A stretch of 64,000 nucleotides of DNA from Flavobacteriales bacterium (GCA_035325445.1 DAOKZW010000001.1:2000-65999); one strand, 5' to 3'; positions 29,045 through 45,359 are shown, numbered from the stretch's first letter. Notes: generated from the sequence alone by a model not told the origin. Translations and numbers: made by a program.

Positions 29045-30054
29045 AAAAGCGTGAGCTCCCTGTTCGCCTTCACCTTGCTCTTTCTTACTGCTTTGGCATC
29101 CTCTGAAGGCAGATCATAGCACTCCTTCACCGCCTTGGCCAGCTGGTAGGCCAGCAATGGGGGCACCGCGTTACCGATCTGATTGAACTGCTGCGTCTCG
29201 TTACCCATGAACTCGAAATGGTCAGGGAAGCTCTGTAATCGGGCCGCCTCACGAACCAGGATCCTACGCCGTCGTCCATCTTCCAAACGCACGCGATGCA
29301 TATCCCCTGTCGCCCCGGCCAAATTGCGGCAGGTCAGCGTGCGTGCCGGGCGATCCCCGTACAGGTCACGAGGATTGATGCACTGCGAGGCCTTTTCGTA
29401 CTTGGCCACGTAGGCGTCCATGGCCGGAGTGAGGAACTTGCTCTCCGGCGGGGTCGTGAACATCATGTCTCCAATGGCTTCCGCCACCGTGACCTTTCGT
29501 CTACGCGCCACGGGGAATTGGAATGAGGAACGGTGCCCTACCACAAAGAGCCTTTCGCGGTTCTGCGGAACTCCGAAATTGACCGCATTCAGCAACCGGT
29601 AGTCCAACCGATACCCGAGCTTGACCAGCTCCTCCAGGATCAGCTCGAAGTACCACTTGTTCGCATAGAGTAAGCCGCGCACGTTCTCGAACATGAAAAC
29701 TTTGGGCTGCAATCGCTTCACGGCATCGATGAAGATGGGGAAACCGTCGCGGGCATCCTCCATGCCGCGCTGGTGGCCACCCACGCTGAATGGTTGGCAA
29801 GGCGGACCACCGATCACAATGTCGGCCTCCGGATACTCGAACCCCACTTCCAACTTCACTGCGTGACACTCGCTGCCCAGGTTGTGCCTGTAACTCTCGG
29901 CGGCAGCCTCATTCATCTCGTAGCCGATAGTCTTGAAGCCAACAGCCTCAAAGCCCAAGGCCAAACCGCCACAGCCCGCGAACAAGTCCAGTACCACTGC
30001 CTCCTCGGTGTGGCGGGGTACCAGTAGTTCGTTGAGTTCTGCGACGTAGGACAT
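29041..30054 (-). CDS. DNA (cytosine-5)-methyltransferase
   Basis: Motif I DLFAGCGG, motif IV GGPPCQPFS, motif VI ENV, motif VIII QNRERLFVVG and motif X GNAV, with a variable TRD between VIII and IX. Confidence 0.9.
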   Translation of the reverse strand: MSYVAELNELLVPRHTEEAVVLDLFAGCGGLALGFEAVGFKTIGYEMNEAAAESYRHNLGSECHAVKLEVGFEYPEADIVIGGPPCQPFSVGGHQRGMEDARDGFPIFIDAVKRLQPKVFMFENVRGLLYANKWYFELILEELVKLGYRLDYRLLNAVNFGVPQNRERLFVVGHRSSFQFPVARRRKVTVAEAIGDMMFTTPPESKFLTPAMDAYVAKYEKASQCINPRDLYGDRPARTLTCRNLAGATGDMHRVRLEDGRRRRILVREAARLQSFPDHFEFMGNETQQFNQIGNAVPPLLAYQLAKAVKECYDLPSEDAKAVRKSKVKANRELTLF

Positions 30055-30134: not shown

Positions 30135-32879
30135 ATGTGCAAAAGCTACCTTGTCATCTGCGCCTTCGACAAAATATTCGTCAATGCCGCTCGTCAAATG
30201 AAGGAAACTTCTACCTCCAGCGATCAGAACTCAACCTACATGGGCATTGAGCTACAGCACATCAAATGCCTCATAGCATCTCCATCCGATACCGGAGAAG
30301 AACGAGCTGCATGTGAAAGAGTTGTAGAGGAACTGAACAAAAGCATCGGTCTGTCACTTGGGGTCTTTTTGGAAACACGCATGTGGGAGCATGACACACA
30401 CCCAGCAATCGGAGAATATGCGCAAGGAGTCGTTAATGAACAGCTTGGCGACGACTACAAGATATTCATTGGGATCATGTACCAACGTTTTGGAACACCG
30501 ACAATAAATGCCGGTTCAGGAACAGAGGAAGAGTTCGACCGTGCAGTTACTCGACATCGGGAAGGCCAGGATGTTGAGGTAATGCTGTACTTCAATGACC
30601 AACCAGTTCCAGTACATGCGATTAACACAAACGACATTGATCGCATCAATGCATTCAAGAAAAGGGTCTCAGATGCAGGTGTGTACTATAAATCTTACTG
30701 TGGCGCATCAGACTTTGAAGGGATGCTCAGGCAGCATCTTACCAAGCAATTGATGAAGCTCTCTGGGGTGAGTGACCAAGGTGTTCTCGGCAACCATGGA
30801 GAGACCCCTCAAGAGTCGGCAGAAGAGGTTCTTCAAAAACGATTGAATGAAGCCTTAGTCAGCTTTTCTGGGCAACCCGTAATCTGGGTTGACCCGGTCC
30901 TGAGCAAGACCAATGACATATCATACAACGCGAACGCCAACTTCACAAGCCGTGTGAAACTTGAAGATCTAATCGATGAGCCGGACTCGGTGATTATCAA
31001 AGCTCCACCACAATTTGGGCTTACTTGCCTCGCCCATAGGTTGATTCTCGAAGCGTGGCGGAAGGGACAGCCATGGATTTACCTTGATTCCAAGGAGGTC
31101 AAGGCGCATCAGGCGCACAGAGTGGTGGAATCAGCCGCTGGCACCATGGGCTGGAGACTGGAAGACGTAATGTGCATCGTACTGGACTCGTGGAATTTTT
31201 ATGACGCGAAGGCACTTAAGAAACTTCGGACACTTTGTTCTACTCATCCGACTATCCCAATCATCGTGATGAACACGATAGATGAGACCAAGTTTGGGAA
31301 CGTGATTGAGGACAACGAGAAGATTGACCGGAACTTCAAAGTGCTGCACCTTCTAGCATTGCCAAGGACACAGTTGCGCAAGGTAGTAGCTCAGTATAAC
31401 GATGCCCGCGAAATCGGCGATGAGGACGTTGTACTCTCGAAAGTTGTGTCAGATCTTCAGTCGTTGAACATCCATCGTACTCCCTTCAACTGCTTGACGC
31501 TTTTGCGCGTCGCTGAGAGGGATTTCGACGAGAGCCCCGTGAACCGGACCAGGATGATTGAGATGGTCCTATTCGCACTTTTCAATATGGATGGCGTTCC
31601 TACCTACGCGTCACGCCTTGATTTGAAAGACTGTGAGTACATGCTCGGCCGACTCTGTGAGAGCATGATCCGAGATGGGTCATACCTATTCACACGAGAG
31701 CGATTCGTGTCCGCCCTGACCAACTTCGGAAAGGAGCAACTGATTGAATTGGACATTGAGAAGCTCTTTGAGGTTCTCTTCGCCAATCACATCATCGTTC
31801 GGCAAGATATAGGGTTCGTATTCCGTGCATCCTACTGGTTCTCATACTTCGCCGCGAAGCGCATGCACATCGACCCGAACTTCCGATCATTCATCTTCGA
31901 ATCGCGTAAGTACACGAGCATCCCGGAAATCATCGAGTTCTATACCGGTATTGACAGGAATCGAGCCGATGCACTCAAGGTTCTGTGTGAGGATCTGCGC
32001 GGAACCCGTGAATTGGTGAGTGCCAAGGTTGGCCTTCCGGAAAACATGAACCCCTATGACCACTTGAAGTGGCTGCCTACGGAGGACCAACTGGCAAGCA
32101 TTCAAGCCGACATCAGCCAAAGTGTACAACAATCCGGACTTCCGGATGAACTCAAGGACCAACATGCCGACAACGCCTACAACCAGCTCCGACCTTACAA
32201 CCAGAGCATACAAGACTTTTTTGAGAAATACTCAGTGTACAATCTCATACAAAAGGTAAGCGCTGCATCACGTGCGCTCAGAAACAGCGATTATGTTGAA
32301 CCCGGACTGAAGCGGGAGGTTCTTGCCGAACTCATGATGAGTTGGCAAGAGCTTTCAAAAGTCCTCATTGTCCTCGCCCCGGTTCTAGCTGCAAAAGGAG
32401 TAGCGGCGTATGAGGGTGCCACATTCTGGCTTGGGGACGGTTTTGGGGACACATTCACCGAACGCTTGCCGAAAATCATTCAAGCCCTTCCGACCAACAT
32501 TGTTGGCTTTTACAAGGACGATTTGGCCTCCGGGAAGATTGGTCCTCTTCTCTTCGACAGACTGATAACGGACGAGGACCCACTCCGCCGACACGAGTTG
32601 GCCTTGCTGACAATCTTCTCTCGCCCAACGGGCTGGAGAAGTCACATCGAAGGCTATATCGCTTCGGTGCACAAGAACTCGTTCTACCTTGCTGACTTGG
32701 TGATGGCGCTTCAGGTTCGCTATCGTTACGACTTCCTTGCAGACGGCGAGGCAAAGGACATCGAGTACCTCATCAAAATGGGTCTTGCCAAACACGAATT
32801 TGGGGACAAGCGTCCTGGCTTGGACAAGATCATAAGAATCTCGAATCGCGTCTTACCAAAGCGCGAGGGGGAAGAATAG
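30135..32879 (+). CDS. Large defense-island protein: N-terminal DUF4062-like domain, central STAND/NACHT-like NTPase with degenerate Walker A, C-terminal alpha-helical region
   Basis: 914-aa ORF at ~47% GC against a ~68% background. The N-terminus (KCLIASPSDTGEER...DYKIFIGIMYQRFGTP...SGTEEEFDRAV...VEVMLYF) fits the DUF4062 pattern. The central region has a P-loop-like IIKAPPQFGLTCLA with no Lys, Walker B-like MCIVLDSWNFYD and a sensor-like HRTPFNCLTLL. The start may be 30198 or 30240. Confidence 0.5.
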   Translation: MCKSYLVICAFDKIFVNAARQMKETSTSSDQNSTYMGIELQHIKCLIASPSDTGEERAACERVVEELNKSIGLSLGVFLETRMWEHDTHPAIGEYAQGVVNEQLGDDYKIFIGIMYQRFGTPTINAGSGTEEEFDRAVTRHREGQDVEVMLYFNDQPVPVHAINTNDIDRINAFKKRVSDAGVYYKSYCGASDFEGMLRQHLTKQLMKLSGVSDQGVLGNHGETPQESAEEVLQKRLNEALVSFSGQPVIWVDPVLSKTNDISYNANANFTSRVKLEDLIDEPDSVIIKAPPQFGLTCLAHRLILEAWRKGQPWIYLDSKEVKAHQAHRVVESAAGTMGWRLEDVMCIVLDSWNFYDAKALKKLRTLCSTHPTIPIIVMNTIDETKFGNVIEDNEKIDRNFKVLHLLALPRTQLRKVVAQYNDAREIGDEDVVLSKVVSDLQSLNIHRTPFNCLTLLRVAERDFDESPVNRTRMIEMVLFALFNMDGVPTYASRLDLKDCEYMLGRLCESMIRDGSYLFTRERFVSALTNFGKEQLIELDIEKLFEVLFANHIIVRQDIGFVFRASYWFSYFAAKRMHIDPNFRSFIFESRKYTSIPEIIEFYTGIDRNRADALKVLCEDLRGTRELVSAKVGLPENMNPYDHLKWLPTEDQLASIQADISQSVQQSGLPDELKDQHADNAYNQLRPYNQSIQDFFEKYSVYNLIQKVSAASRALRNSDYVEPGLKREVLAELMMSWQELSKVLIVLAPVLAAKGVAAYEGATFWLGDGFGDTFTERLPKIIQALPTNIVGFYKDDLASGKIGPLLFDRLITDEDPLRRHELALLTIFSRPTGWRSHIEGYIASVHKNSFYLADLVMALQVRYRYDFLADGEAKDIEYLIKMGLAKHEFGDKRPGLDKIIRISNRVLPKREGEE

Positions 32880-33077: not shown

Positions 33078-33689
33078 TCAATCCTGACGTACTTCGGGAT
33101 CCGTGACGTAATCCTTCACCCGTTCCCTGAGATAGAGGAATGCAAAAGGCAGTATGAGGGCACAGATGCCCAATGACACCCATGTAATGCCATTTGCGGC
33201 AATCACTATGGGCATGGCTATGAGCAGAGCCAATCCCGATACGCCTAATGGAAACAAGTTCGATAGGTCCCTTCGGGCAACGCAGAACAGCACATCGTCC
33301 AGCACCGAATCATAGCTCTTTCCCGGCTTGACCACAGGTCTGGTACCATTCACGGCGAGCGCTTCCTTGTTTCGGATTTCTTGCATCATCTCCCACTGCT
33401 TCGCCTTCGGAAACCGCAGCGGCTCATGGCGCACCAGCAGGCGGTGCATCCGATAATAGGCGATACGCGTATCCTCATACCGCAGGACTTCAAATCCCTT
33501 GCGGATGGACAGGAGTGCTTCATGGTCACCAGTGGGAATCACCTGCTTACACCTGCGCAGAAACTGGCGGAGGAGATGGATGTCCGAAAATCCAGGATCT
33601 ACGCCAAGAACGGCATAGTAGTTCGCCAAGATCAATGAATCAGATCCGTTCACGTTCCCGGTGCGAGCAACTTCTGCATGGTGCTCCAT
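33078..33689 (-). CDS. J-domain-like membrane protein (degenerate DnaJ domain, no HPD)
   Basis: NYYAVLGVDPGFSDIHLLRQFLRR resembles a J-domain helix II, but HPD is replaced by IPTGDH. Two C-terminal TM helices. Confidence 0.35.
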   Translation of the reverse strand: MEHHAEVARTGNVNGSDSLILANYYAVLGVDPGFSDIHLLRQFLRRCKQVIPTGDHEALLSIRKGFEVLRYEDTRIAYYRMHRLLVRHEPLRFPKAKQWEMMQEIRNKEALAVNGTRPVVKPGKSYDSVLDDVLFCVARRDLSNLFPLGVSGLALLIAMPIVIAANGITWVSLGICALILPFAFLYLRERVKDYVTDPEVRQD

Positions 33690-33694
33690 GTACC

Positions 33695-34960
33695 CTACAT
33701 ATTCCTCCTGTACTGCCCACCAACCTCAAACATGGCGGAGGTAAGCTGGCCGAGGCTACAGTACTTACACGCTTCCATCAGCACCGCAAACATGTTCTCG
33801 TTGCGGACCGCCGCCTGTTGGAGATCGTGCAAAGCTTTGGTGCTTTCCGCCGCGTAAGCGACCGTGAGGTTTTCCACGGTATGGATCTGATCCTCCTTTT
33901 CCTCTTCGGTGGCGCGGATCACCTCCTTGGGGATGATGGTGGGTGAGCCGCTGCTGCTGAGGAAGGTATTGACGCCCATGATGGGGTATTCGCCGCTGTG
34001 CTTGAGGCGCTCGTAGTAGAGGCTTTCCTCCTGGATCTGGCCGCGCTGGTACATGGTTTCCATGGCGCCCAGCACGCCGCCGCGCTCGGTGATGCGGTCG
34101 AACTCACTGAGCACGGCCTCTTCCACCAGGTCGGTGAGCTCCTCGATGATGAAGCTGCCCTGCAAGGGATTTTCGTTCTTGGCCAGGCCGAGCTCGTGGT
34201 TGATGATGAGCTGGATGGCGAGGGCGCGGCGCACGCTTTCCTCGGTGGGCGTGGTGATGGCCTCGTCGTAGGCGTTGGTGTGCAGGCTGTTGCAGTTGTC
34301 GTAAATGGCGTAGAGCGCCTGCAGCGTGGTGCGGATGTCGTTGAAATCGATCTCCTGCGCGTGCAGGCTGCGGCCGCTGGTCTGGATGTGGTACCGTGGG
34401 TGCCACTGCGGGCCTCGCTCCGGCATCACCGCCTTCGGCGGCCCTTCGGGCGAGCGCGCTCCTTGCGCCATACCGCGTTGCTTCCTCGGTCAGCTACCGG
34501 TTACGGTAGCCTCCCTCGTCGCGCCTTGTCTGGCACAAAGATCATCGCTCGTGCTTGCCGTTCGAGGCCCACAGAGGCACCCTGGCATCTGGCTGCGCTA
34601 TTCTCTGATCGAAGAACAGAAGGCGCGCCTGCCTGCCGAAGCGTCTTCGCGAAGGCATGGCCACGCGGCCCATCACGGCATACTCGGGGTCCATGCCGTT
34701 GCTGAAGAAGAAGCTCAGGTTCGGAGGGAAGGCGTTGATGTCCATGCCCCGACTGAGGTAGTACTCCACGTAGGTGAAGCCGTTCGCCAGCGTGAAGGCG
34801 AGCTGGCTGATGGGGTTGGCGCCGGCCTCCGCTATGTGGTAGCCGCTGATGCTTACGCTGTAGAAGTTGCGCACCTTCTTGTCGATGAAGTACTGCTGCA
34901 CGTCGCCCATGAGGCGCAGCGCGAACTCGGTACTGAAGATGCAGGTGTTCTGCGCCTGGT
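33695..34960 (-). pseudogene. Silent 3' copy A of icmF (mutase substrate-binding domain C-terminus), split by a ~270-nt insertion (track ORFs 33695..34471 and 34542..34910)
   Basis: Near-identical at protein level to the last ~360 aa of the intact icmF ([30 protein letters not shown]...[17 protein letters not shown]). There is no upstream coding continuation and the homology stops at ...TTCTGCGCCTGGT. Confidence 0.85.
34393..34662. mobile_element. MITE-like insertion inside icmF copy A
   Basis: ~270 nt replace 67 nt of the icmF sequence. Imperfect terminal inverted repeats (GGGTGCC-CTG-GGGCCTCG) flank an internal core shared with the insertion in copy B (CCTTCGGGCG.GCGCGCTC ... GCTACC-loop-GGTAGCCTCCCT ... 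GATCATCGC). Confidence 0.5.
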
Positions 34961-34989
34961 GGGTATGCCCGCCCTGAGCTTGTCGAAGG

Positions 34990-35160
34990 GTTGGGCGTGC
35001 CCCGGCTCAAATGCAGCCGGGTCGCGTGCTACGCTGTAGCCGGACTTGTCAGGGCCAGCGACTGCGGCACTTCGGGGTCACTCCTTCGTCGTGCCTCCTC
35101 GTTGCTCGCATCCACAAGGCCCTGCCTGTGCCGGGCTGGCGCTTCGCCCGCTCACGCAAC
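34990..35160. repeat. Conserved ~170-nt element X at the island-side boundary of icmF copy A
   Basis: It is ~90% identical to 40338..40510 next to copy B. It begins exactly where icmF homology ends and contains the hairpin CCCGGCT-CAAATGC-AGCCGGG. It is non-coding and lies ~150 nt upstream of the first plus-strand gene of the island. Confidence 0.55.
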
Positions 35161-35311: not shown

Positions 35312-37168
35312 ATGGCCGAACTCGAAGTACCCAAAGATGTTCCGTGGCACCTGCTATGCACAAGCCAAGACATGATGGACCCGAAGTTCTGCAACAAGAG
35401 CTTCCCATTCCCGTGGCGTTCATCGCTGGCAATATCCGCCTATGAAGTTCCGGAAGAGGACTTGCCGGAACCCTTCTGCAATGGCCGCCTGACCTACGTC
35501 AAACTGACCCTTTCCATCACGGGCTACCAACCCACGGATCAAGAAATTGAAGATGCCTATGTACAGTTCGGCAACACACCCGTTGAAGCCAACCTGGACG
35601 ACATCTTCGCAGAATACTTTGGGTGCTATGGGGCACTGCTCAACGTGGCCTTCTTTCCCAACTCAGCCCAGAGTTGGCCCACAAAGGACTTCCCTCGGAT
35701 CATCGCCATGGAACCCAAGGTTCGGGAGTTGATCCAAAGCGCCACGGAGTCGGGTGAGCTTTTGACCGCGACAAAGGGCAGCCTTTCGACTACGAAGACC
35801 AATTCGACCACGCGGGAAACGAAGACGGGGATCAAGGCCGATCTGGAGTCACCCATTCCAACCTTTGGAACTGATAAAGGGAAGGCAACATTGGGGTTTA
35901 CCCACAATTGGGGTCGGACACAGCAGGACACGTATCAGACAGTGGCCAATGCCTCCGATGAGCGTTCGGAGAAGGAAGGCCATACTACACAGCTTGAACA
36001 GCTGTACAACTTCTTGGCGGCTTATCATCAGGGCACCAACCGTGGCGTATTCCTGATGCTTCCCCGGCCCCACATCCTGCAACCCACCGACCGCAGGACT
36101 TTCGTGCAGGGTGTCCGTTCGATCGAAGGAATTCAGGAGTTCTTCCTCGCTGTGGTGCGACCTGCCGACATGGAAGGCATCTGCATCGAGGCCAGCTTGG
36201 ATACGGGGCATTTTCCGGAGGATGCTCGGATACTCCCTCCATTACCGAACTACCACGAAAAGACGGAAACCTTCATAATAGACAAGCATGTGCCCAACGG
36301 TGGCGGGCCGTGGGGGAGTGGGCAGCAGGTGTCCCTCAACCATACCCATACTGTTGCATCCGGATGGGTAGTGGACCAACGAACGTTCCCCTTCCCTCCA
36401 TTCCCCAAGGGTGATCCGGGACACATCGGCGTATCCGATCACATTGTCTCACAGAATTCCCAAGGCGCGCCGCAGAACTACAACTATCAGGCGACCAGCG
36501 CAACCACGGTGCAGGTCAGTGGTCATATTCAAAGTGGTACTTGGGGGATCGGGCATGGTGCCATTTTCAAGCATCTGTACACAGTGCATTGTCGTTCTGT
36601 GAACGAGATCGAATCCGACTTCCAGAACCTTCACCGGATCTCCGATCTGCTGATCACTTCCCGGAACCTGTGCTGCTGTTTCTATAAGGGGGCCACAGCA
36701 TGCCTGATCCAAGGCCCTGTGCCGCCCACGCCGCCCACGCCGGTGCCGGATACCCCATACAGCAGGATCGTGGAGCAGCGCGAATTGAAGATCCCCGCAA
36801 GCCTGCTTTCCGACCCGATCGCCGGAAAGAGCTTGGAACCGGCGACCAAAGGACTGCTGCGTGAATTGAAGGCGATCATGTCCACCAGCCGGGATGGCCG
36901 GTTCTCGCATACCAAGGATGGCATCAACTACCTGCAATCCGACCACTTCATCCGCAGGGTCATCGCCAAGTACCCCAAGGAGATAAGGGACGAGTTGTTG
37001 CGCAATGTCCCGGGCCTATCACCACACGTGGTGGATGCCTTTGGTAGCGAGGGCACGGTGGAAGAGGCGCTCTCGGTGACGCTGGCCAAGTTCATGGTCC
37101 GGACCGGCTTGGACCTGTCGAAATCTCTCGACGAACGGCAGTTGCTCATCAACCTGATAAAACGTTGA
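35312..37168 (+). CDS. Hypothetical 618-aa orphan protein (low-GC island)
   Basis: Long ORF with an ATG start and a GC content clearly below its surroundings. No signal peptide or recognisable catalytic motif. Its central Ser/Thr/Gly-rich alternating stretch is suggestive of beta-hairpins. Confidence 0.5.
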   Translation: MAELEVPKDVPWHLLCTSQDMMDPKFCNKSFPFPWRSSLAISAYEVPEEDLPEPFCNGRLTYVKLTLSITGYQPTDQEIEDAYVQFGNTPVEANLDDIFAEYFGCYGALLNVAFFPNSAQSWPTKDFPRIIAMEPKVRELIQSATESGELLTATKGSLSTTKTNSTTRETKTGIKADLESPIPTFGTDKGKATLGFTHNWGRTQQDTYQTVANASDERSEKEGHTTQLEQLYNFLAAYHQGTNRGVFLMLPRPHILQPTDRRTFVQGVRSIEGIQEFFLAVVRPADMEGICIEASLDTGHFPEDARILPPLPNYHEKTETFIIDKHVPNGGGPWGSGQQVSLNHTHTVASGWVVDQRTFPFPPFPKGDPGHIGVSDHIVSQNSQGAPQNYNYQATSATTVQVSGHIQSGTWGIGHGAIFKHLYTVHCRSVNEIESDFQNLHRISDLLITSRNLCCCFYKGATACLIQGPVPPTPPTPVPDTPYSRIVEQRELKIPASLLSDPIAGKSLEPATKGLLRELKAIMSTSRDGRFSHTKDGINYLQSDHFIRRVIAKYPKEIRDELLRNVPGLSPHVVDAFGSEGTVEEALSVTLAKFMVRTGLDLSKSLDERQLLINLIKR

Positions 37169-37171
37169 ACC

Positions 37172-37531
37172 ATGGCCATACAAGCAAAAGACATCATGGG
37201 CAAATGGGAGTTCACTGAAACCTTTATCGAGAGCAAGTCCATCCCGGTAGAGGCGCAGTGCTTTTACGACCTCGGTTTCGGCGGCTCCTTTACGTGTACG
37301 ACGATTGATAATGGGGTCAAAGTGGACATCCATGTACACGGACGATGGAGCTTTGATGAAAACAACGCCCAAATGGAGTTGGTCTTCAAGAGGGATGAGG
37401 ACTTGGGACTGCCTGACAGGCACTATCTGTGTGAGGTCACCAATGCGGACAACAGCACGCTCAAGTTCTCCTACAAGGACGTGAATGGGATCACCTCACA
37501 TGCCGTGCTCAAAGCGGTGGTACCCACATGA
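37172..37531 (+). CDS. Lipocalin-like domain protein
   Basis: 119 aa with the N-terminal GKWEF motif typical of lipocalin-like beta-barrel domains. It begins 4 nt after the upstream stop. Confidence 0.5.
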   Translation: MAIQAKDIMGKWEFTETFIESKSIPVEAQCFYDLGFGGSFTCTTIDNGVKVDIHVHGRWSFDENNAQMELVFKRDEDLGLPDRHYLCEVTNADNSTLKFSYKDVNGITSHAVLKAVVPT

Positions 37532-37601
37532 ACCATTCCGTGCAGATACGGCACCATTTTGCCCGGTTGGCACAGATTGTGGAACCAACGGAGAGGAAGA
37601 T

Positions 37602-38168
37602 ATGAGCGCATGGGGCAAGTATTTGGTGGTAGGCATGTTCATGTTTTGGAATGCGTGCAGTTCCCGGAAAATAGCTTTCATCCCCACGGAACCTGTTTCA
37701 CTGCCCACCGCTGAGGCTCTGCCTTACTCGTTCTGCCTGAGTGTTTCGGATGTGAAGGACACCATGCACATAGTGAGCCGCTATGCCGTGGTCCATGATG
37801 TCCGGCGCACCACAGCATTCGCGCTTGAGAAAGCCTTCGAGGCTTCGTTTCCATTGGTGCGAACCGATGGTGCCAACAACTGCCTCATGCTGAGGGTGGT
37901 TTCCGTGGCGGTGGACTATCGTCCGGTTGAACACTATCAGCACAGGCGATCGGATGGTTCTTCGAGCACCCAGCAGGTCTTCTTGGTCGATGTGGCATAC
38001 AAGGCCCTGCTGTACAATGCGGACACGCTCATTGCCGTGTTCGACAACGTCGTAAGCCATACCGAACTCAACACGTTCCGCAAGAACTTGAAAAGAGGCA
38101 TGGAACTGATGGCCGAAGATCTGAATGCCAAGGTGGTCCGGTTCATGCTGGGGCAGAAGGATGAATGA
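37602..38168 (+). CDS. Hypothetical lipoprotein
   Basis: The signal peptide and lipobox region (MSAWGKYLVVGMFMFWNACSS) were chosen as the start within track ORF 37485..38168. Confidence 0.35.
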   Translation: MSAWGKYLVVGMFMFWNACSSRKIAFIPTEPVSLPTAEALPYSFCLSVSDVKDTMHIVSRYAVVHDVRRTTAFALEKAFEASFPLVRTDGANNCLMLRVVSVAVDYRPVEHYQHRRSDGSSSTQQVFLVDVAYKALLYNADTLIAVFDNVVSHTELNTFRKNLKRGMELMAEDLNAKVVRFMLGQKDE

Positions 38169-39043
38169 ACGGCCATGGCACCATGTGGACGATGCGCGGA
38201 TATATCGCCGTTACCACGGTCTTAATGACCATCCATGTCAGCGGCCAGTACATCTTGAACGGCGACTTCGAGATCAACAACGCCACACCGGGGGCGAACG
38301 AGATGAACATGACCAATGCCCAGTTCAATGCAATGGTCCCGGATTGCTTCAGCTTCGCTCAACCCGGATGGGCCCAGTTGGATCTGATCACGACGGCGGA
38401 ATGGGGTGGCCTTGCCCATAGCGGTGATCGCTTCATTGGGATGGGTTGGACGGATCGCCTTGCCATGCGGCTTTCAGAGCCATTGACCATCGGACAGACC
38501 TACCAACTCTCGTTCCATGAAAGAGGGTATTCCGGGGCATGTACGGGCGGGTTCTCCATTGGCCTGTCATCCACCCCCTCCAGCATGGGCACCTATATCC
38601 ATAACACCTCCCTTTTCCCGGTGGTGGGCGTCTGGAAATTGCGTGTGTTCTCCTTCGTCGCCCCAGTGGCGGCGGACTACATCACCGTGCTCATGTCCGG
38701 TTTTGTGGGCTGCTGGCAGCACGTTGATAATTTCTGTCTATCAGCCACTTCCGATTGCGCAATCCCGACCGTGATCCATGTGCCGAATGTGTTCACACCC
38801 AATGCGGATGGTGTCAACGACCGTTTCTTGCCATTCGCCGGGACGGACATCACCGGTGGATCCATGGAGATCTACAACCGTTGGGGCGACATGATCTTCA
38901 GCACTGAAGACATCGACAGCGGATGGGATGGCACCACTGATGAGCAGCCATGCTCGAATGGCGTCTACTTCTATCGCCTTTCCTACACAACGGTCTTTGG
39001 CGCGAGCGAGAGCAAACACGGGTCCTTCACATTACTGAGATAA
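38165..39043 (+). CDS. Secreted protein with type B T9SS sorting domain (gliding motility-associated C-terminal domain)
   Basis: The C-terminal ~90 aa match the TIGR04131-type CTD (VPNVFTPNADGVNDRF...IYNRWGDMIF...WDGT...NGVYFYRL...GSFTLLR). The N-terminal signal may begin at MRGYIAV (38192). Confidence 0.6.
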   Translation: MNGHGTMWTMRGYIAVTTVLMTIHVSGQYILNGDFEINNATPGANEMNMTNAQFNAMVPDCFSFAQPGWAQLDLITTAEWGGLAHSGDRFIGMGWTDRLAMRLSEPLTIGQTYQLSFHERGYSGACTGGFSIGLSSTPSSMGTYIHNTSLFPVVGVWKLRVFSFVAPVAADYITVLMSGFVGCWQHVDNFCLSATSDCAIPTVIHVPNVFTPNADGVNDRFLPFAGTDITGGSMEIYNRWGDMIFSTEDIDSGWDGTTDEQPCSNGVYFYRLSYTTVFGASESKHGSFTLLR

Positions 39044-39079: not shown

Positions 39080-40338
39080 TTACATATTCCTCCTATACTG
39101 TCCCCCCACTTCGAACATCGCAGCCGTCAACTGCCCCAGCGAGCAAAACTTCGTCGCTTCCATCAATACCTCGAACATGTTCTCGTTCCGGATCGCGGCT
39201 TGTTGCAGATCCTTGATCGCCTTGGCCGCTTCATCCGCATAAGCAGTTCGGAGATTCTCCACGGTCGCGATCTGGGCTTCCTTCTCTTCTTCCGTTGCCC
39301 GAATGACCTCTTTCGGGAGAATTGTAGGTGACCCCTTGCTCGACAGGAAGGTATTCACCCCGATGATCGGATACTCGCCCGTGTGCTTGAGCGTTTCGTA
39401 GTAGAGGCTTTCCTCCTGGATCTTGCCGCGCTGGTACATCGTCTCCATGGCGCCGAGCACGCCGCCGCGTTCAGTGATGCGGTCGAACTCCTTCAGCACG
39501 GCTTCTTCCACCAGGTCGGTGAGTTCCTCGATGATGAAGCTGCCCTGCAGCGGGTTCTCGTTCTTGGCCAGGCCGAGCTCGCGGTTGATGATGAGCTCTC
39601 GGGTACCACACCGCACCCCGTTCCGGCGCCATGGCGGCACAGCCGCCACCCTTCGGGCGGGCGCGCTCGTCCGCCCATGCTGCGTTGCTCGGCGGTCGGC
39701 TACCTCGTGGTAGCCTCCCTTCCTCGCGCCTTGCCTGGCCGAACGATCATCGCCCGTGGCATCCGTTCGGGGCACGGCGTGGTACCCTGAGGCCATGGCG
39801 CGGCGCACGCTTTCCTCGGTGGGCGTGGTGATGGCCTCGTCGTAGGCGTTCGTGTGCAGGCTGTTGCAGTTGTCGTAGATGGCGTAGAGCGCCTGCAGGG
39901 TGGTGCGGATGTCGTTGAAGTCGATCTCTTGCGCGTGCAGGCTGCGGCCGCTGGTCTGGATGTGGTACTTCAGCATCTGGCTGCGCTCGTCGGCGCCGTA
40001 GCGGTGCTTGAGGGCTTTGGCCCAGAGGCGGCGCGCCACGCGACCCATCACGGCGTATTCGGGGTCCATGCCGTTGCTGAAGAAGAAGCTCAGGTTGGGC
40101 GCGAAGGCGTTGATGTCCATGCCCCGGCTGAGGTAGTACTCCACGTAGGTGAAGCCGTTGGCCAGGGTGAAGGCGAGCTGCGAGATGGGGTTGGCGCCGG
40201 CCTCTGCGATGTGGTACCCGCTGATGCTGACGCTGTAGAAGTTGCGGACCTTCTGGTCGATGAAGTACTGCTGCACGTCGCCCATCAAGCGCAGCGCGAA
40301 CTCGGTGCTGAAGATCGTTGTTCTGCGCCTGGTGGTTC
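39080..40338 (-). pseudogene. Silent 3' copy B of icmF with a ~190-nt in-frame insertion (track ORF 39080..40288)
   Basis: 402-aa ORF nearly identical to the intact IcmF C-terminus, except for a 63-aa insert between EESVRRAMA and LIINRELG. Homology to the intact gene ends at the same point as copy A. Confidence 0.85.
39603..39789. mobile_element. MITE-like insertion inside icmF copy B
   Basis: 187 nt bounded by GGTACC-containing ~24-bp imperfect terminal inverted repeats (GGGTACCACACCGCACCCCGTTCCGG / CCGTTCGGGGCACGGCGTGGTACCC). The internal hairpin GGCTACC-TCGT-GGTAGCC covaries with the copy A version GCTACCG-GTTA-CGGTAGC. Confidence 0.55.
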
Positions 40339-40510
40339 TTTGGGCGTGCCCCGGCTCAAATGCAGCCGGGTCGCGTGCTGCGCTTTAGCCGGTCTTGTCA
40401 GGGCCAGCGGCTGCGGCACTGCGGGGTCACGCCTGCGTCGTGCCGCCTCGTTGCTCGCATCCGCAATGCCCTTCCTGCGCCGGGCTGCCGCTTCGCCCGC
40501 TCACGCGGAG
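40338..40510. repeat. Conserved ~170-nt element X at the island-side boundary of icmF copy B
   Basis: Second copy of the element at 34990..35160. It starts where the icmF homology ends and is followed ~50 nt later by the first gene of the heavy-metal island. Confidence 0.55.
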
Positions 40511-41036: not shown

Positions 41037-44000
41037 ATGATCGACAGGATCATCCGGTTCTCCATACACAACAAGGCCATCATCGGGCTCTTCACGCTCG
41101 TGCTGGTGCTTTACGGGGCGTACTCGCTCACGCAATTGCCGATCGATGCGGTACCCGACATCACCAACAACCAGGTGCAGGTGATCACCACCACGCCTAC
41201 GCTGGCCGCGCAGGAGGTGGAACAGTTCGTTACCGCGCCCATCGAGCGGGCCATGGCCAGCCTGCCCGATCTGGTGGAGATCCGCTCCATCAGCCGCTTC
41301 GGGCTAAGTCTTGTGACCATCGTATTCGATGAGGACGTGGACGTGTACTTCGCCCGCACCTTGGTGGACCAGCGCCTGGGCGAGGCCGCCGCACTGATAC
41401 CGCCCGGGGTGGGCACACCGACCATGGCCCCGGTAAGCACCGGGTTGGGCGAGGTGTACCAATACGTGCTGCACCCCAAGGAAGGGTACGAGGGCACCTT
41501 CAGCCCCAGCGAGCTGCGCACCATCCAGGAATGGATCGTAGTGCGGCAGCTGTTGGGCACACCCGGTGTGGCCGAGGTGAACAGCTACGGCGGCGAGGTG
41601 AAGCAGTACGAGGTGAGCGTGGACCCCAAGCGCTTGCAAAGCATGGGCGTCACCATCGGTGAGCTACTGCTCGCGTTGGAGAGCAACAACGAGAACACCG
41701 GCGGCGCCTACATCGAGAAACGGCCCAACAGCTACAGCATCCGGGGCGAAGGACTGCTGCGCACGCTGGACGACATCCGCAAGGTGGTGGTGAAGATCCC
41801 GCCCGGCGGTGTGCCGCTCCTGGTGGGCGATGTGGCCGAGGTGGGCTTCGGTGCGGCCCCGCGCTACGGTGCGCTCACCCGCAATGGCGAAGGCGAAGCG
41901 GTGGGCGGCACGGTGATGATGCTGAAGGGTGGCAACAGCGCCGAAGTGGTGAAGGCTATTGAAGCGCGCATACCGAACGTGCAGAAGGCCCTGCCGGAAG
42001 GGCTGATGATCGAACCCTATCTGGTGCGCAGCGAACTGGTGGGGCGGGCCATCGGCACGGTGAAGACGAACCTGATCGAGGGCGCGTTGATCGTGATCTT
42101 CGTGCTGGTGCTCTTTCTAGGAAATTGGCGCGCGGGCCTCATCGTGGCCTCGGTGATCCCACTGTGCATGCTCTTCGCCATCATCCTCATGAACGCCTTC
42201 GGCGTCAGCGGCAATTTGATGTCGCTTGGTGCCATCGATTTCGGATTGATCGTGGACGGCGCCGTGATCATCGTGGAGGCCACCCTGCACCACCTGCATG
42301 CGCGCTTCAAGGGAAGGATCCTTACCCGCGAGGAGATGGACCGCGAGGTTTTCGTGAGCGCCAGCAAGATCCGGACGAGCGCGGCCTTCGGCGAGATCAT
42401 CATCCTGATCGTGTACATCCCCATCCTCACACTGGTGGGCATCGAGGGCAAGATGTTCCGCCCCATGGCCATCACCGTCAGCTTCGCCATCCTGGGTGCC
42501 CTGTTGCTCTCGCTCACCTATGTGCCCATGATGAGCGCGCTGGTGCTGCCGCGCAACACGGCGCACAAACCCAACTTCAGCGACCGCATGATGGACCGTT
42601 TCCAGAAGTGGTACGATCCCATCATCGGCTTCGCCTTGCGCAACCGGATCAAGACCGTGGGTGTGGCCGTGGCGCTCTTCATCAGCTCGGTCTTCCTGTT
42701 CGCACGCATGGGCGGCGAGTTCATTCCCACCTTGGAAGAGGGCGACTTCGCCTTCCACAGCATCCTGCCGCAGGGCGCATCGCTCAGCCAGAGCATCGCC
42801 AACAACGCCAAGGTGGAGAAGATCCTGCTGCAATTCCCGGAGGTGAAGCAGGTGGTGGGACGCACCGGCAGCGCCGAGATCCCCACGGACCCCATGCCCC
42901 CCGAAGCCACGGACCTCATGATCATCTTGAAGGACAAGGACGAATGGACCACCGCGCACGACCGCGAGGCTTTGCAGGACACCATGCTGCAAGCCTTGAG
43001 GCAGGTACCCGGCGTGTTCTACGAAGCCACCCAACCCATCCAGATGCGCTTCAACGAATTGATGACCGGCATACGGCAGGACGTGGCCGTGAAGATCTAC
43101 GGTGAGAACATGGACACCCTCGCGGTGATCGCGAACAAGGTGGCGGCGATCATCGGCGAAGTGCAAGGTGCGGGTGAACCGCAGGTGGAAAAGGTGGTGG
43201 GCCTGCCACAGATCACCATCACCTATGATCGTGCACGGGTAGCGCAGTACGGCCTCAACATCCGCGAACTGAACCGCACCGTGCGCACGGCCTTCGCGGG
43301 CGAGGCCACCGGCGTCATCTACGAGAACGAGCGCCGCTTCGATCTGGTGGTGCGCCTCGGTGACCAACAGCGGCAGAGCATCGACGATGTGCGCACCCTC
43401 TTCGTGGCGCTGCCCGGTGGCGGACAGATCCAGTTGCAGCAGGTGGCCGATGTGTCCTTGACACCCGGCCCGGCCCAGATCAGCCGGGAGGATGCCAAGC
43501 GCCGCATCGCCGTGGGCGTGAACATCCGTGGCCGTGACGTGGAAAGCTTCGTGGAAGAGCTCCAAGGCCGCATCGATGCCGAAGTGCCAATGCCCGCGGC
43601 CTACTACTACACCTTCGGCGGCACCTTCGAGAACCTGCAGGCAGCTAGCAAACGCCTGATGCTGGCGGTGCCCATCGCGCTGGCCCTCATCTTCCTGCTG
43701 CTCTTCTTCACCTTCAACAGCGTGAAGCGCGCCCTGCTGATCTACACCGCCATCCCCATGAGCGCCATCGGCGGTGTGCTTGCGCTCATGGCGCGCGGCA
43801 TGCCCTTCAGCATCAGCGCGGGCGTGGGCTTCATCGCGCTCTTCGGCGTGGCGGTGCTCAACGGCATCGTCCTCATCGCCACCTTCGACCAACTGGAAAA
43901 GGAAGGCATCAGCGACCTGAAGGAGCGCGTGTTGAAAGGTACCCGCACACGGCTGCGTCCCGTGCTGATGACGGCGGCGGTGGCCTCGCTCGGTTTCCTG

Positions 44001-45359
44001 CCCATGGCCTTGAGCGGCAACGCGGGCGCGGAAGTGCAACGCCCCCTGGCCACGGTGGTGATCGGTGGCCTCATCACCGCCACGGCCCTCACCCTCATGG
44101 TGCTGCCGGTGCTCTATCTGCTCTTCATGGGCGGAGGCAGGAGGCGCAACGATGCCAATGGCGGCAAGGCGAACGCACCGCTGATCGTCGCGACCGTGCT
44201 GTTGATCATGATCGGCGGCACCAGCAGCGCACAGGAACCGATGCCGATGGACACGGCGATCGCACGCGCCTTGCGCACCCATCCGAGCATGACCGCTGCG
44301 GAACTGCGTGTGCAGGAACAGGATGCCCTGCGTGGCACGGCCTTCGGGCTGCAGCCGCTCAACGCGCAATTCTCCCATGGCCAGACCCAGGGGCCGTATC
44401 CCAAGGACATTATCCTGGAAGCCAATACCGGGTTCGCATTTCCCACCACCATTGCCCGACGCGCGGCCTACCTGAAGGAAAGCCTGCACCTTGCGGAGAA
44501 CGAAAAGCTGAACACGGCGGCCTACGTGAAGGAGAGCGCGGGAGGGGCCTACCTGCAATGGGCCATGGGCCTTGAACAGGTGCGTATCCTGCAACAGCTG
44601 GACAGCGCGTACGCATCCATGGCGGCCTTCGCGCTGCAGCGCTTCGAGCTCGGTGAGACCGGCCGCTTGGAAAGCACCAGTGCGCAAAGCCGCGCCGAGC
44701 AGGTGAAGGTGCGCTTGCGCCAGGCACAGGCTGATCTGGTGGCCTACCAGGTGGAAGTAGAACGCTGGACGGGCCCGCTCAGTGGTGCCGTGCCGGTGCC
44801 CGAGGAATTGCTCAACACCGCACGAGCGCCGGATCCCGGCGGCGGCAACGACCCGCTCCTGCTCTCCTTGCAGCAGCGCACGCAGGTGGCCGAGGCCGAA
44901 TGGAAACTGCAACGCAGCCAATGGGCACCCAGCCTGCAGGGCGGCGGCTTCTACCAGACCTTCGATGGCACGTCGCCCTTTTCGGGCTTCCTCATCGGTG
45001 CTTCGATCCCCCTGCCCGGCAGCGGCCAGGGCGGTCGCACCTCGGCGGCACGTTTGCGCAGCGAGATCGCCGCGCAGGAACTGGAAGCCGCACGCCGACA
45101 GCGCAGCAGCGAGCGCGCCACCACGCAGGCGCAGCTCACTCAATTGCGCGAGAGCCTCGCCTTCTATGAAAGCACCGGTGCCGCGCTGGGTGCTACCCTG
45201 CGCGACGATGCCCTGCGTGCCTATCGCGCGGGCGAAGCCGACTACTTCCAATTCACTCAAGGCATCGAGCAGGCCTTTCAACTCAACGCCGAGCACTTGC
45301 GCGTGCGTTACGAGCTCGCACTTACCGTCCTCCACCTCCGTGCCCTCAATGGGCTCTAA
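41037..45359 (+). CDS. CzcA-family heavy-metal efflux RND transporter fused in frame to a TolC/CzcC-like outer-membrane factor (1440 aa)
   Basis: The first ~1040 aa form a canonical HME-RND pump (12 TM segments, two large periplasmic loops). With no stop, the frame continues through a signal-peptide-like segment (RRRNDANGGKANAPLIVATVLLIMIGGTSSAQ) into a ~370-aa outer-membrane efflux protein-like domain. Confidence 0.8.
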   Translation: MIDRIIRFSIHNKAIIGLFTLVLVLYGAYSLTQLPIDAVPDITNNQVQVITTTPTLAAQEVEQFVTAPIERAMASLPDLVEIRSISRFGLSLVTIVFDEDVDVYFARTLVDQRLGEAAALIPPGVGTPTMAPVSTGLGEVYQYVLHPKEGYEGTFSPSELRTIQEWIVVRQLLGTPGVAEVNSYGGEVKQYEVSVDPKRLQSMGVTIGELLLALESNNENTGGAYIEKRPNSYSIRGEGLLRTLDDIRKVVVKIPPGGVPLLVGDVAEVGFGAAPRYGALTRNGEGEAVGGTVMMLKGGNSAEVVKAIEARIPNVQKALPEGLMIEPYLVRSELVGRAIGTVKTNLIEGALIVIFVLVLFLGNWRAGLIVASVIPLCMLFAIILMNAFGVSGNLMSLGAIDFGLIVDGAVIIVEATLHHLHARFKGRILTREEMDREVFVSASKIRTSAAFGEIIILIVYIPILTLVGIEGKMFRPMAITVSFAILGALLLSLTYVPMMSALVLPRNTAHKPNFSDRMMDRFQKWYDPIIGFALRNRIKTVGVAVALFISSVFLFARMGGEFIPTLEEGDFAFHSILPQGASLSQSIANNAKVEKILLQFPEVKQVVGRTGSAEIPTDPMPPEATDLMIILKDKDEWTTAHDREALQDTMLQALRQVPGVFYEATQPIQMRFNELMTGIRQDVAVKIYGENMDTLAVIANKVAAIIGEVQGAGEPQVEKVVGLPQITITYDRARVAQYGLNIRELNRTVRTAFAGEATGVIYENERRFDLVVRLGDQQRQSIDDVRTLFVALPGGGQIQLQQVADVSLTPGPAQISREDAKRRIAVGVNIRGRDVESFVEELQGRIDAEVPMPAAYYYTFGGTFENLQAASKRLMLAVPIALALIFLLLFFTFNSVKRALLIYTAIPMSAIGGVLALMARGMPFSISAGVGFIALFGVAVLNGIVLIATFDQLEKEGISDLKERVLKGTRTRLRPVLMTAAVASLGFLPMALSGNAGAEVQRPLATVVIGGLITATALTLMVLPVLYLLFMGGGRRRNDANGGKANAPLIVATVLLIMIGGTSSAQEPMPMDTAIARALRTHPSMTAAELRVQEQDALRGTAFGLQPLNAQFSHGQTQGPYPKDIILEANTGFAFPTTIARRAAYLKESLHLAENEKLNTAAYVKESAGGAYLQWAMGLEQVRILQQLDSAYASMAAFALQRFELGETGRLESTSAQSRAEQVKVRLRQAQADLVAYQVEVERWTGPLSGAVPVPEELLNTARAPDPGGGNDPLLLSLQQRTQVAEAEWKLQRSQWAPSLQGGGFYQTFDGTSPFSGFLIGASIPLPGSGQGGRTSAARLRSEIAAQELEAARRQRSSERATTQAQLTQLRESLAFYESTGAALGATLRDDALRAYRAGEADYFQFTQGIEQAFQLNAEHLRVRYELALTVLHLRALNGL

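Follow-up and report, generated by a model that had tools for sequence, protein, structure and literature searches.

A stretch of 64,000 nucleotides of DNA from a Flavobacteriales bacterium (GCA_035325445.1 DAOKZW010000001.1:2000-65999), referred to below as the window, contains an uninterrupted open reading frame (ORF) of 914 codons plus the stop codon at positions 30135 to 32879 (+), running from ATG to TAG. The predicted product combines an N-terminal DUF4062/NIR domain, a central STAND core with leucine where the Walker A lysine would be, and an all-α C-terminal domain. A preliminary description of the window had proposed a defence protein of 914 amino acids (aa) at this position, and the reading frame is indeed intact, though translation probably starts at M22 (position 30198, 893 aa) or M36 (position 30240, 879 aa), because full-length homologues are 869-893 aa long and have their N-termini near M36. 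The two closest homologues (80% and 67% identical) carry short N-terminal extensions, and the 67%-identical one, P0003, begins with MKEQSTT, as does the ORF product when read from M22. The identical locus is present in a metagenome assembly at ENA, where the gene caller placed the start far too late, at M150. Judging by the 713 homologues found in one database, and the 676 clusters at 50% identity found in another, the family is far from a chance occurrence.

The gene differs from its surroundings in base composition. Its GC content is 49.8%, against 62.3% for the window overall and 63-66% for the flanks, so that the contrast is real, if smaller than the 47% against 68% reported at first; its GC content at third codon positions is 0.58, versus 0.85 in the neighbouring acrB-like gene. 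Scans for promoters and terminators gave no signal above chance. All motifs that had been quoted for the protein were found where they had been placed: IASPSDTGEER at aa 47-57, DYKIFIGIMYQRFGTP at aa 107-122, GSGTEEEFDRAV at aa 127-138, VEVMLYF at aa 147-153, IIKAPPQFGLTCLA at aa 287-300, MCIVLDSW at aa 346-353 and HRTPFNCLTLL at aa 447-457.

The N-terminal effector domain (aa 41-210; 30255 to 30764, +) resembles DUF4062, as had been suggested, and at the level of the family this assignment is secure from profile comparisons. Indeed, 21 of 22 aligned N-domains of the family match PF13271 at E≤0.01 (best E 7.5e-10), precomputed PF13271 matches are present on many homologues, and a homologue on a Chryseobacterium plasmid is labelled 'DUF4062 domain-containing protein' in RefSeq. 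A profile of the family N-domains, searched against the PDB, found a single relevant structure, the DUF4062 domain of KpSwz (10wc_A, E 0.0022), and the PADLOC profile PDLC05050 covers aa 43-240 of the ORF product (E 3e-54). In the AlphaFold2 model, the domain adopts an alternating β/α fold.

Three 2026 preprints describe DUF4062 as a TIR-like NADase domain, renamed NIR, in Swarozyc, Evangelion, Vulcan and Vesta as well as in the STAND protein PsAvs2. DUF4062/NIR domains, including that of PsAvs2, have been shown experimentally to be NADases acting by abortive infection, and a glutamate is essential in PsAvs2 (E108), KpSwz (E97), Vulcan (E98) and VstA (E103). The predicted catalytic residue of the ORF product is the equivalent glutamate, Glu133 (E98 when counted from M36; codon at 30531 to 30533, +), which lies in the motif SGTxxE[FL], is invariant in the family alignment and sits opposite the E97A position of the KpSwz construct (10wc_A). 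The W/E and Q positions of the domain are likewise invariant in this alignment. By analogy with these proteins, the N-domain is predicted to be an NADase. Published surveys have found about 20% of DUF4062 genes near defence genes, where 3.9% would be expected.

The centre of the protein is a real STAND module, with a nucleotide-binding domain (NBD), a helical domain and a winged helix, in agreement with the STAND-like NTPase first proposed. The match to PF24406 (nSTAND_NTPase4) is above the gathering score (28.6 bits versus 27; aa 517-573) and is also found on most homologues. We modelled the ORF product with AlphaFold2 on 27 homologues (predicted local distance difference test score, pLDDT, 78.6). 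The NBD (aa 286-425; 30990 to 31409, +), which is supported by the secondary structure of the model, by Foldseek, and by the DS-8 and PDLC05051 profiles, is of the P-loop α/β type, with β1 at aa 286-290, followed by the loop, α1 at aa 296-309, the Walker B strand at aa 347-354, and further elements through β5. It is followed by helical domain 1 (aa 426-485; 31410 to 31589, +), a four-helix domain (helices at aa 430-444, 450-463 and 471-483, among others) with the near-invariant loop N445, H447, R448, T449 and P450, and by the winged-helix domain (aa 497-580; 31623 to 31874, +), a helix-helix-hairpin-helix arrangement in the model that includes the PF24406 match. The P-loop and Walker B, in that order, are thus as the preliminary description had them; its 'sensor', however, is not sensor 1, since the HRTP motif belongs to the helical domain after the NBD. 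This NxHRTP loop may instead correspond to the GxP motif of other STANDs.

Against the PDB, Foldseek ranked NLRP5, NLRP9, NLRC4, NOD2 and NAIP highest for the model (E 2e-7 to 4e-5), with AAA+ proteins next. Global template-modelling (TM) scores were low (about 0.22-0.26), as expected because multi-domain proteins are being compared. Two profiles of defence proteins also matched the core, the NCBIfam DS-8 model NF053861 (aa 250-578, E 1e-11) and PADLOC PDLC05051 (E 4e-19). A sequence search of the PDB with the full-length protein gave no relevant match.

The canonical Walker A motif, GxxxxGK[ST], is absent from the ORF product, which has APPQFGLT (A290 to T297; 31002 to 31025, +) in its place. 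To locate the position of the lysine we used GKT-bearing relatives, plasmid-encoded metallophosphatase-STAND proteins recovered by tblastn of plasmids, which are homologous to the ORF core over about 400 residues (BLASTP E 9e-17). APPQFGLT aligns column for column with GVKEAGKT of Klebsiella grimontii, GKKEMGKT of Bacillus thuringiensis and GNRESGKT of Sphingomonas; we conclude from this alignment that Leu296 occupies the position of the Walker A lysine, as the preliminary description had proposed. In the published part of DS-8, its first 399 residues, the motif is GDEFCGKST with the lysine at position 375, and the K375A mutant loses defence (PMC13092281). An hhalign comparison places K375 of DS-8 opposite L296, in what is a weak alignment (E 0.11); no match to the ORF product came from BLASTP with the 99-aa DS-8 fragment that has been published.

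We then surveyed the loop in 326 relatives that cover it; they were drawn from 120 close matches, from 80 genome loci and from 150 cluster representatives (clustered at 50% identity), the most distant of which are about 27% identical. The lysine is absent from 324 of them, so that the lysine-less P-loop, the conservation of which had been put forward as a check, is a property of the whole clade: the position is occupied by L in 286, M in 14, Q in 8, A in 7, S in 4, F in 3, I in 2 and K in 2. The loop has the form [AS]PPQ[FY]GL[TS], in which A or S has replaced the first glycine and the interior is taken up by two prolines, Q and F/Y. G295 and T/S297 are both present in 326/326 relatives. The Walker B strand CIVLDSW (aa 347-353; 31173 to 31193, +) lies within the strand at aa 347-354 of the model; its D351 is conserved in 331/331, with no second acidic residue following it (position 352 is S, N, E or D, and position 353 is W in 267). 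Further along the core, R415 is found in 333/339 and R448 in 339/342, and position 447 is H in 299/342 and P in 39, P being also the residue of the GKT-bearing outgroups. Because G295, T/S297 and D351 are invariant, the P-loop has been rebuilt rather than eroded. Canonical binding and hydrolysis of ATP by the clade is very unlikely, since the lysine is replaced throughout inside a rigidly conserved loop; the term 'ATP-binding-deficient', used in the preliminary description, is an inference.

We built a rough neighbour-joining tree with the GKT proteins as its root; in it, metallophosphatase fusions occupy all basal branches and NIR fusions form a derived subclade. This suggests, provisionally, that the lysine-less clade derives from GKT-bearing, DS-8-like metallophosphatase-STANDs; the branching order is itself provisional because this is a distance tree only. 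The sole members with a lysine (2/326) are L075 10001-12622, from an Alcanivoracaceae metagenome-assembled genome, and P0145, with PPQFGKT and PEFGKT, respectively. We considered whether these two might be ancestral and rejected this, because they are nested deep among lysine-less relatives in the tree, a position that suggests that their lysine is a reversion.

The C-terminal domain (aa 581-914; 31875 to 32876, +), the presumed sensor, is helical in the AlphaFold2 model, as first described, but measures about 335 aa after the winged helix and not 450. Modelled alone (pLDDT 84.4, predicted TM-score 0.84), it forms an all-α bundle or solenoid with one hairpin. Foldseek found no significant match to it in the PDB, the best (E 0.025, TM about 0.2) being to importin, ARM and PUF proteins, that is, HEAT/ARM-like solenoids. 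The domain contains the invariant polar motifs KDQHAD and RALRNSDY, the latter at 32271 to 32294. By analogy with other STAND proteins, it may act both as the sensor and as an autoinhibitory domain. We also noted a candidate element for binding or latching, the loop at aa 681-698 (32175 to 32228), in which Y682, Q684, P687, Y688 and Q690 are invariant although its pLDDT is below 50.

The core of the family is joined to different N-terminal domains. We classified the N-termini of 349 family sequences against profiles made for this analysis, and found NIR in 187, metallophosphatase in 104 and other domains in 27, the remaining 31 being truncated. Ten of the 'other' N-termini were a protein kinase, an FAD/NAD Rossmann domain, SIR2, an α/β-hydrolase, a PNP/UDP phosphorylase, trypsin-like proteases (three), CHAT and SEFIR/TIR, and a calcineurin-like metallophosphatase was found in 10/10 of the long forms sampled. 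At least ten effector types are thus carried by one conserved core, and an exchange of toxic N-termini over one constant core is characteristic of Avs/NLR-type immune proteins. The clade comprises at least 177 clusters at 50% identity (E≤1e-30) and is spread patchily over at least six phyla, among them Bacteroidota, Pseudomonadota, Chloroflexota, Desulfobacterota and Planctomycetota.

Around 28 other NIR-type loci we found type III and IIG restriction enzymes, Hhe, NERD-UvrD, a methyl-directed endonuclease, Schlafen/AlbA_2 and transposases, and no conserved partner gene; because the neighbours vary between loci, the family is a single-gene system. The 80%-identical homologue adjoins HNH_2 and DndB genes, and others adjoin ParE/PIN genes, an IS110 element or a SNIPE nuclease. 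On a plasmid of Chryseobacterium sp. SNU WT5 (NZ_CP041688.1), a family member (L083 9485-14208) lies inside a type I restriction-modification (R-M) operon, between hsdS and hsdR. Its neighbours in this compact defence island are a DUF4145 gene and a CBASS-like pair made up of a nucleotidyltransferase and an S-4TM pore-forming effector. The defence setting that had been proposed for the ORF finds support in its own island, in the changing defence and mobile-element genes beside homologues and in the swapping of effectors, yet some homologue loci look ordinary.

Within the window, the ORF adjoins the genes that had been listed as its neighbours, a type II R-M pair, a PIN ORF, RhuM and an HNH gene. 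The R-M pair (28034 to 30054, -) is divergent from the ORF and consists of a BsuBI/PstI-type endonuclease (28034 to 29044, -) and a C5-cytosine methyltransferase, not an N6-adenine enzyme (29041 to 30054, -), whose genes overlap by 4 nucleotides. The rest of the low-GC variable region (23532 to 27648, -) contains the HNH_2 gene (23532 to 24323, -), a PqiA-like gene (24570 to 25886, -), RhuM (26017 to 27117, -) and the PIN_3 ORF (27313 to 27648, -). The match of the PqiA-like product, a 438-aa protein, to PqiA (paraquat-inducible protein A) is partial and covers aa 282-373 only. A 55-nucleotide copy of the 3' end of the endonuclease gene (27154 to 27208, 89% identity) lies 0.9 kb away from it, beside the PIN_3 ORF, and suggests a remnant of an older cassette. 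On the other side of the ORF, a convergent 203-aa ORF (33078 to 33689) was considered as the second gene of a two-gene system and rejected, as neighbours vary between loci.

Further downstream, a methylmalonyl-CoA-mutase-like gene occurs twice (33695 to 35157 and 39080 to 40506), as a direct repeat of about 1.4 kb with 71-96% nucleotide identity that takes in the region upstream of the intact copy. One copy is broken (ORFs 33695 to 34471 and 34542 to 34910) and the other is intact (39080 to 40288, 401 aa). Between the repeats lies a lower-GC cassette of four genes (35312 to 39043, +), including one for a CHU_C/type IX secretion sorting-domain protein (38165 to 39043). The repeat and the cassette look like an insertion or recombination scar at the far edge of the variable region. 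An ORF of 1440 aa at 41037 to 45359 encodes a complete AcrB/AcrD/AcrF RND transporter with a C-terminal outer-membrane efflux protein (OEP) domain; such an RND-OEP fusion in a single polypeptide would be unusual, unless it is an artefact of assembly or a frameshift.

We compared the ORF product with described defence systems. PsAvs2 (Le Mouellic et al., bioRxiv 10.64898/2026.09.04.749371), which acts through NAD+ depletion and abortive infection, and other NIR(DUF4062)-STAND proteins are, like the ORF, encoded by one gene and have an N-terminal NIR domain with the catalytic glutamate, a central STAND and a C-terminal helical sensor. In PsAvs2, however, the STAND is of the Avs2 type and terminase is recognised by a TPR sensor, whereas the ORF combines an nSTAND4-type core (PF24406), leucine at the Walker A lysine position and a compact presumed sensor unlike solved structures. 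The effector domain with its catalytic glutamate is also that of Swarozyc, Vulcan, Vesta and Evangelion, which act by NAD+ depletion and abortive infection. In these systems, however, NIR is fused to auxiliary or HEAT domains that are not STANDs, or is accompanied by a separate phosphatase gene, and none has an NTPase-like core for oligomerisation.

For the STAND core, the closest experimentally validated relative is DS-8 (WP_032203427.1; PMC13092281; NF053861), the metallophosphatase-STAND architecture of which is also found within the lysine-less clade, in the 104 of 349 N-termini given above. DS-8 itself has a canonical Walker A and a metallophosphatase effector, where the ORF has Leu296 and NIR. 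Membership of the ORF in DS-8 (the NF053861 equivalog) was rejected, the score being 43.2 bits versus a cut-off of 790 over part of the protein, with neither a metallophosphatase nor the lysine; the metallophosphatase members of the clade themselves reach only 80-177 bits against this model. PADLOC, run on the ORF product, reported only PDC-S60. Membership in this candidate system was also rejected, since there is no full-length match and the two partial ones are to different profiles, PDLC05050 (positions 5-203 of 906) for the N-domain and PDLC05051 (positions 355-822 of 1027) for the core. The family was thus already represented by a Pfam model and by partial PADLOC candidate profiles; our literature search found no relevant paper on nSTAND4 or PDC-S60.

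STANDs with degenerate nucleotide-binding motifs have been described before. In the functional Avs protein KpAvs8, both Walker motifs, A and B, are described as degenerate, 'suggesting a lack of ATPase activity' (Lee et al., Nature 2026, PMC13581612, where 589 STAND clades are catalogued). An immune STAND that lacks a working ATPase thus has a precedent. KpAvs8 belongs, however, to another STAND family and senses the major capsid protein, and its degeneracy is seen in one homologue (EcAvs8 is canonical), in contrast to the clade-wide fixation observed here. Catalytically inactive STAND modules have also been predicted in conflict systems, namely iSTAND, iSTAND2 and the inactive nSTAND2 partner (Kaur et al. 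2020; 2021, PMC8195603). These modules belong to multi-gene MoxR-vWA ternary systems or two-gene systems and have eroded NTP-binding motifs, whereas the ORF stands alone and its motif is remodelled with G, T/S and D kept; membership in iSTAND was rejected given that no MoxR or vWA genes lie nearby, that no partner is fixed across the 28 loci and that the motif is strictly conserved.

The family has the three-part layout of Avs proteins (effector, STAND and C-terminal domain) with interchangeable effectors. Avs sensors are large TPR-like repeats, typically of 400 aa or more, that bind a conserved phage protein, and the C-terminal domain of the ORF is shorter and all-α, with non-significant resemblance to HEAT/ARM/PUF solenoids. 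The ORF product is Avs-like by architecture only. Among plants, the 'sensor' NLRs RRS1, RGA5 and Pb1, which have degenerate P-loops, are immune receptors that work without a canonical P-loop, and they pair with a helper NLR bearing an intact one. The ORF family differs from these paired receptors in having no conserved neighbouring STAND gene as a partner. The early statement that the architecture is not among described systems now holds only in part, as NIR-STAND (PsAvs2), inactive STANDs and an Avs protein with degenerate Walker motifs were published between 2020 and 2026. In the literature searched, we found no description of a clade-wide, strictly conserved lysine-less P-loop, of its origin from GKT-bearing, DS-8-like proteins, or of its spread over at least ten effector types.

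We consider it reasonably probable that the ORF encodes a single-protein, NLR-like (Avs-type) anti-phage receptor, horizontally acquired into a defence island, that causes NAD+-depleting abortive infection and assembles independently of nucleotide. At rest, the C-terminal α-helical domain and the STAND core would keep the protein as an inactive monomer. Binding of a phage-derived trigger, most likely a protein, to the C-terminal domain would lift the autoinhibition, and the STAND core would oligomerise and bring the N-terminal NIR domains together. Once assembled, these would deplete NAD+ through E133, and the infected cell would arrest or die before the phage cycle ends. Assembly would be driven by the trigger alone, with the rebuilt P-loop serving as a fixed structural element or latch. 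For the clade as a whole we propose, more tentatively, that after permanent replacement of the Walker A lysine it fires without ADP/ATP exchange or, more boldly, that the P-loop pocket is now a receptor for a different ligand.

Several observations weigh against this reading. We found no experimental test of any clade member in the literature; the N-domain of the ORF, taken alone, scores 17.5-20.7 bits against PF13271, below the cut-off of 24.7; the defence neighbours are given as observed, not as an enrichment over background; and for a sensor the C-terminal domain would be short, with unusually high conservation, and unlike any solved one. The invariant G295, T/S297 (the Mg2+-coordinating residue) and D351 and the near-invariant R415 and R448 would, in addition, fit a retained non-canonical nucleotide or ligand site. 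Architecture and immune role could then be the same, but the STAND core would still be a nucleotide or small-molecule switch, in which the P-loop, T297, D351-Mg2+, R415, H447 and R448 bind a phosphate-bearing ligand without the lysine. We regard this as rather unlikely, although it is a serious rival because T/S297 and D351 never vary. The motif is rigidly kept and not eroded: across more than 326 sequences G295, T/S297 and D351 never change, and conservation reaches at least 98% at R415 and R448; His447 is a clade-specific gain, proline being the residue of the outgroups; and a restored lysine has been tolerated in two lineages. Avs7 carries ADP at rest, must bind ATP via Thr, Lys, Asp and Arg to become active and is inactive without nucleotide, and in both Avs7 and Avs5 it is nucleotide binding that matters, not hydrolysis. 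However, replacing the Walker A lysine with alanine abolishes function in every bacterial STAND tested: the mutants of DS-8 (K375A) and of Avs5 (EfAvs5 K379A and PaAvs5 K363A) are inactive in defence. Moreover, the first Walker A glycine has also given way to A or S, the loop is occupied by two prolines and an aromatic residue, and W353 after the Walker B aspartate suggests a pocket filled by hydrophobic side chains. Nucleotide-independent assembly appears to us somewhat more likely than a non-canonical ligand site.

The low score of the N-domain bears on its chemistry too. Instead of an NADase, it could be a related N-glycosidase of the nucleoside 2-deoxyribosyltransferase (NDT)/TIR-like kind, acting on nucleotides or nucleosides, such as a CMP/dNMP hydrolase, and defence would then proceed by nucleotide depletion; in sequence space DUF4062 falls between the TIR and NDT families, CMP hydrolase was the initial annotation of the PsAvs2 domain, and the family N-domain is divergent, as seen from the distance to both Pfam and KpSwz. 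We nevertheless find this improbable, as all DUF4062/NIR domains tested (PsAvs2, Vulcan, VstA, KpSwz, Eva01 and human TEP1) deplete or hydrolyse NAD+ via the same glutamate, and this residue is invariant in the ORF family together with the W/E and Q positions. Finally, the protein might have no immune function at all, and be a decaying or repurposed STAND regulator or scaffold present in the variable region by accident. The canonical ATPase motif has been lost, some homologues lie among housekeeping or metabolic genes, and a scan of viral contigs for relatives found none. This possibility is highly improbable in our view, since the ORF is intact, the family keeps 50-56% identity over its full length across phyla with invariant catalytic and structural residues, and the N-terminal domains swapped on the core are all classic immune effectors. 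The patchy distribution is, furthermore, consistent with horizontal transfer, the contexts are rich in R-M and toxin-antitoxin genes, and candidate-defence profiles of PADLOC are matched.

The NLR/STAND receptors of animals, plants and bacteria are thought to be nucleotide-gated switches. Here we describe a large natural clade that is under clear purifying selection and lacks the Walker A lysine, yet has a full set of immune effectors. With this clade it can be tested directly whether assembly of the NLR type can be separated from ATP, and what takes over from the nucleotide latch; built-in controls are the two lineages that have regained the lysine, the GKT-bearing sister proteins and effectors that are easily assayed (NADase, phosphatase and protease). 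The clade also adds a widespread, Bacteroidota-centred candidate branch to the newly recognised DUF4062/NIR NADase defence repertoire. If our proposal is true, ADP/ATP exchange, thought to be the universal switch of NLRs, would not be needed for this clade to assemble and fire.

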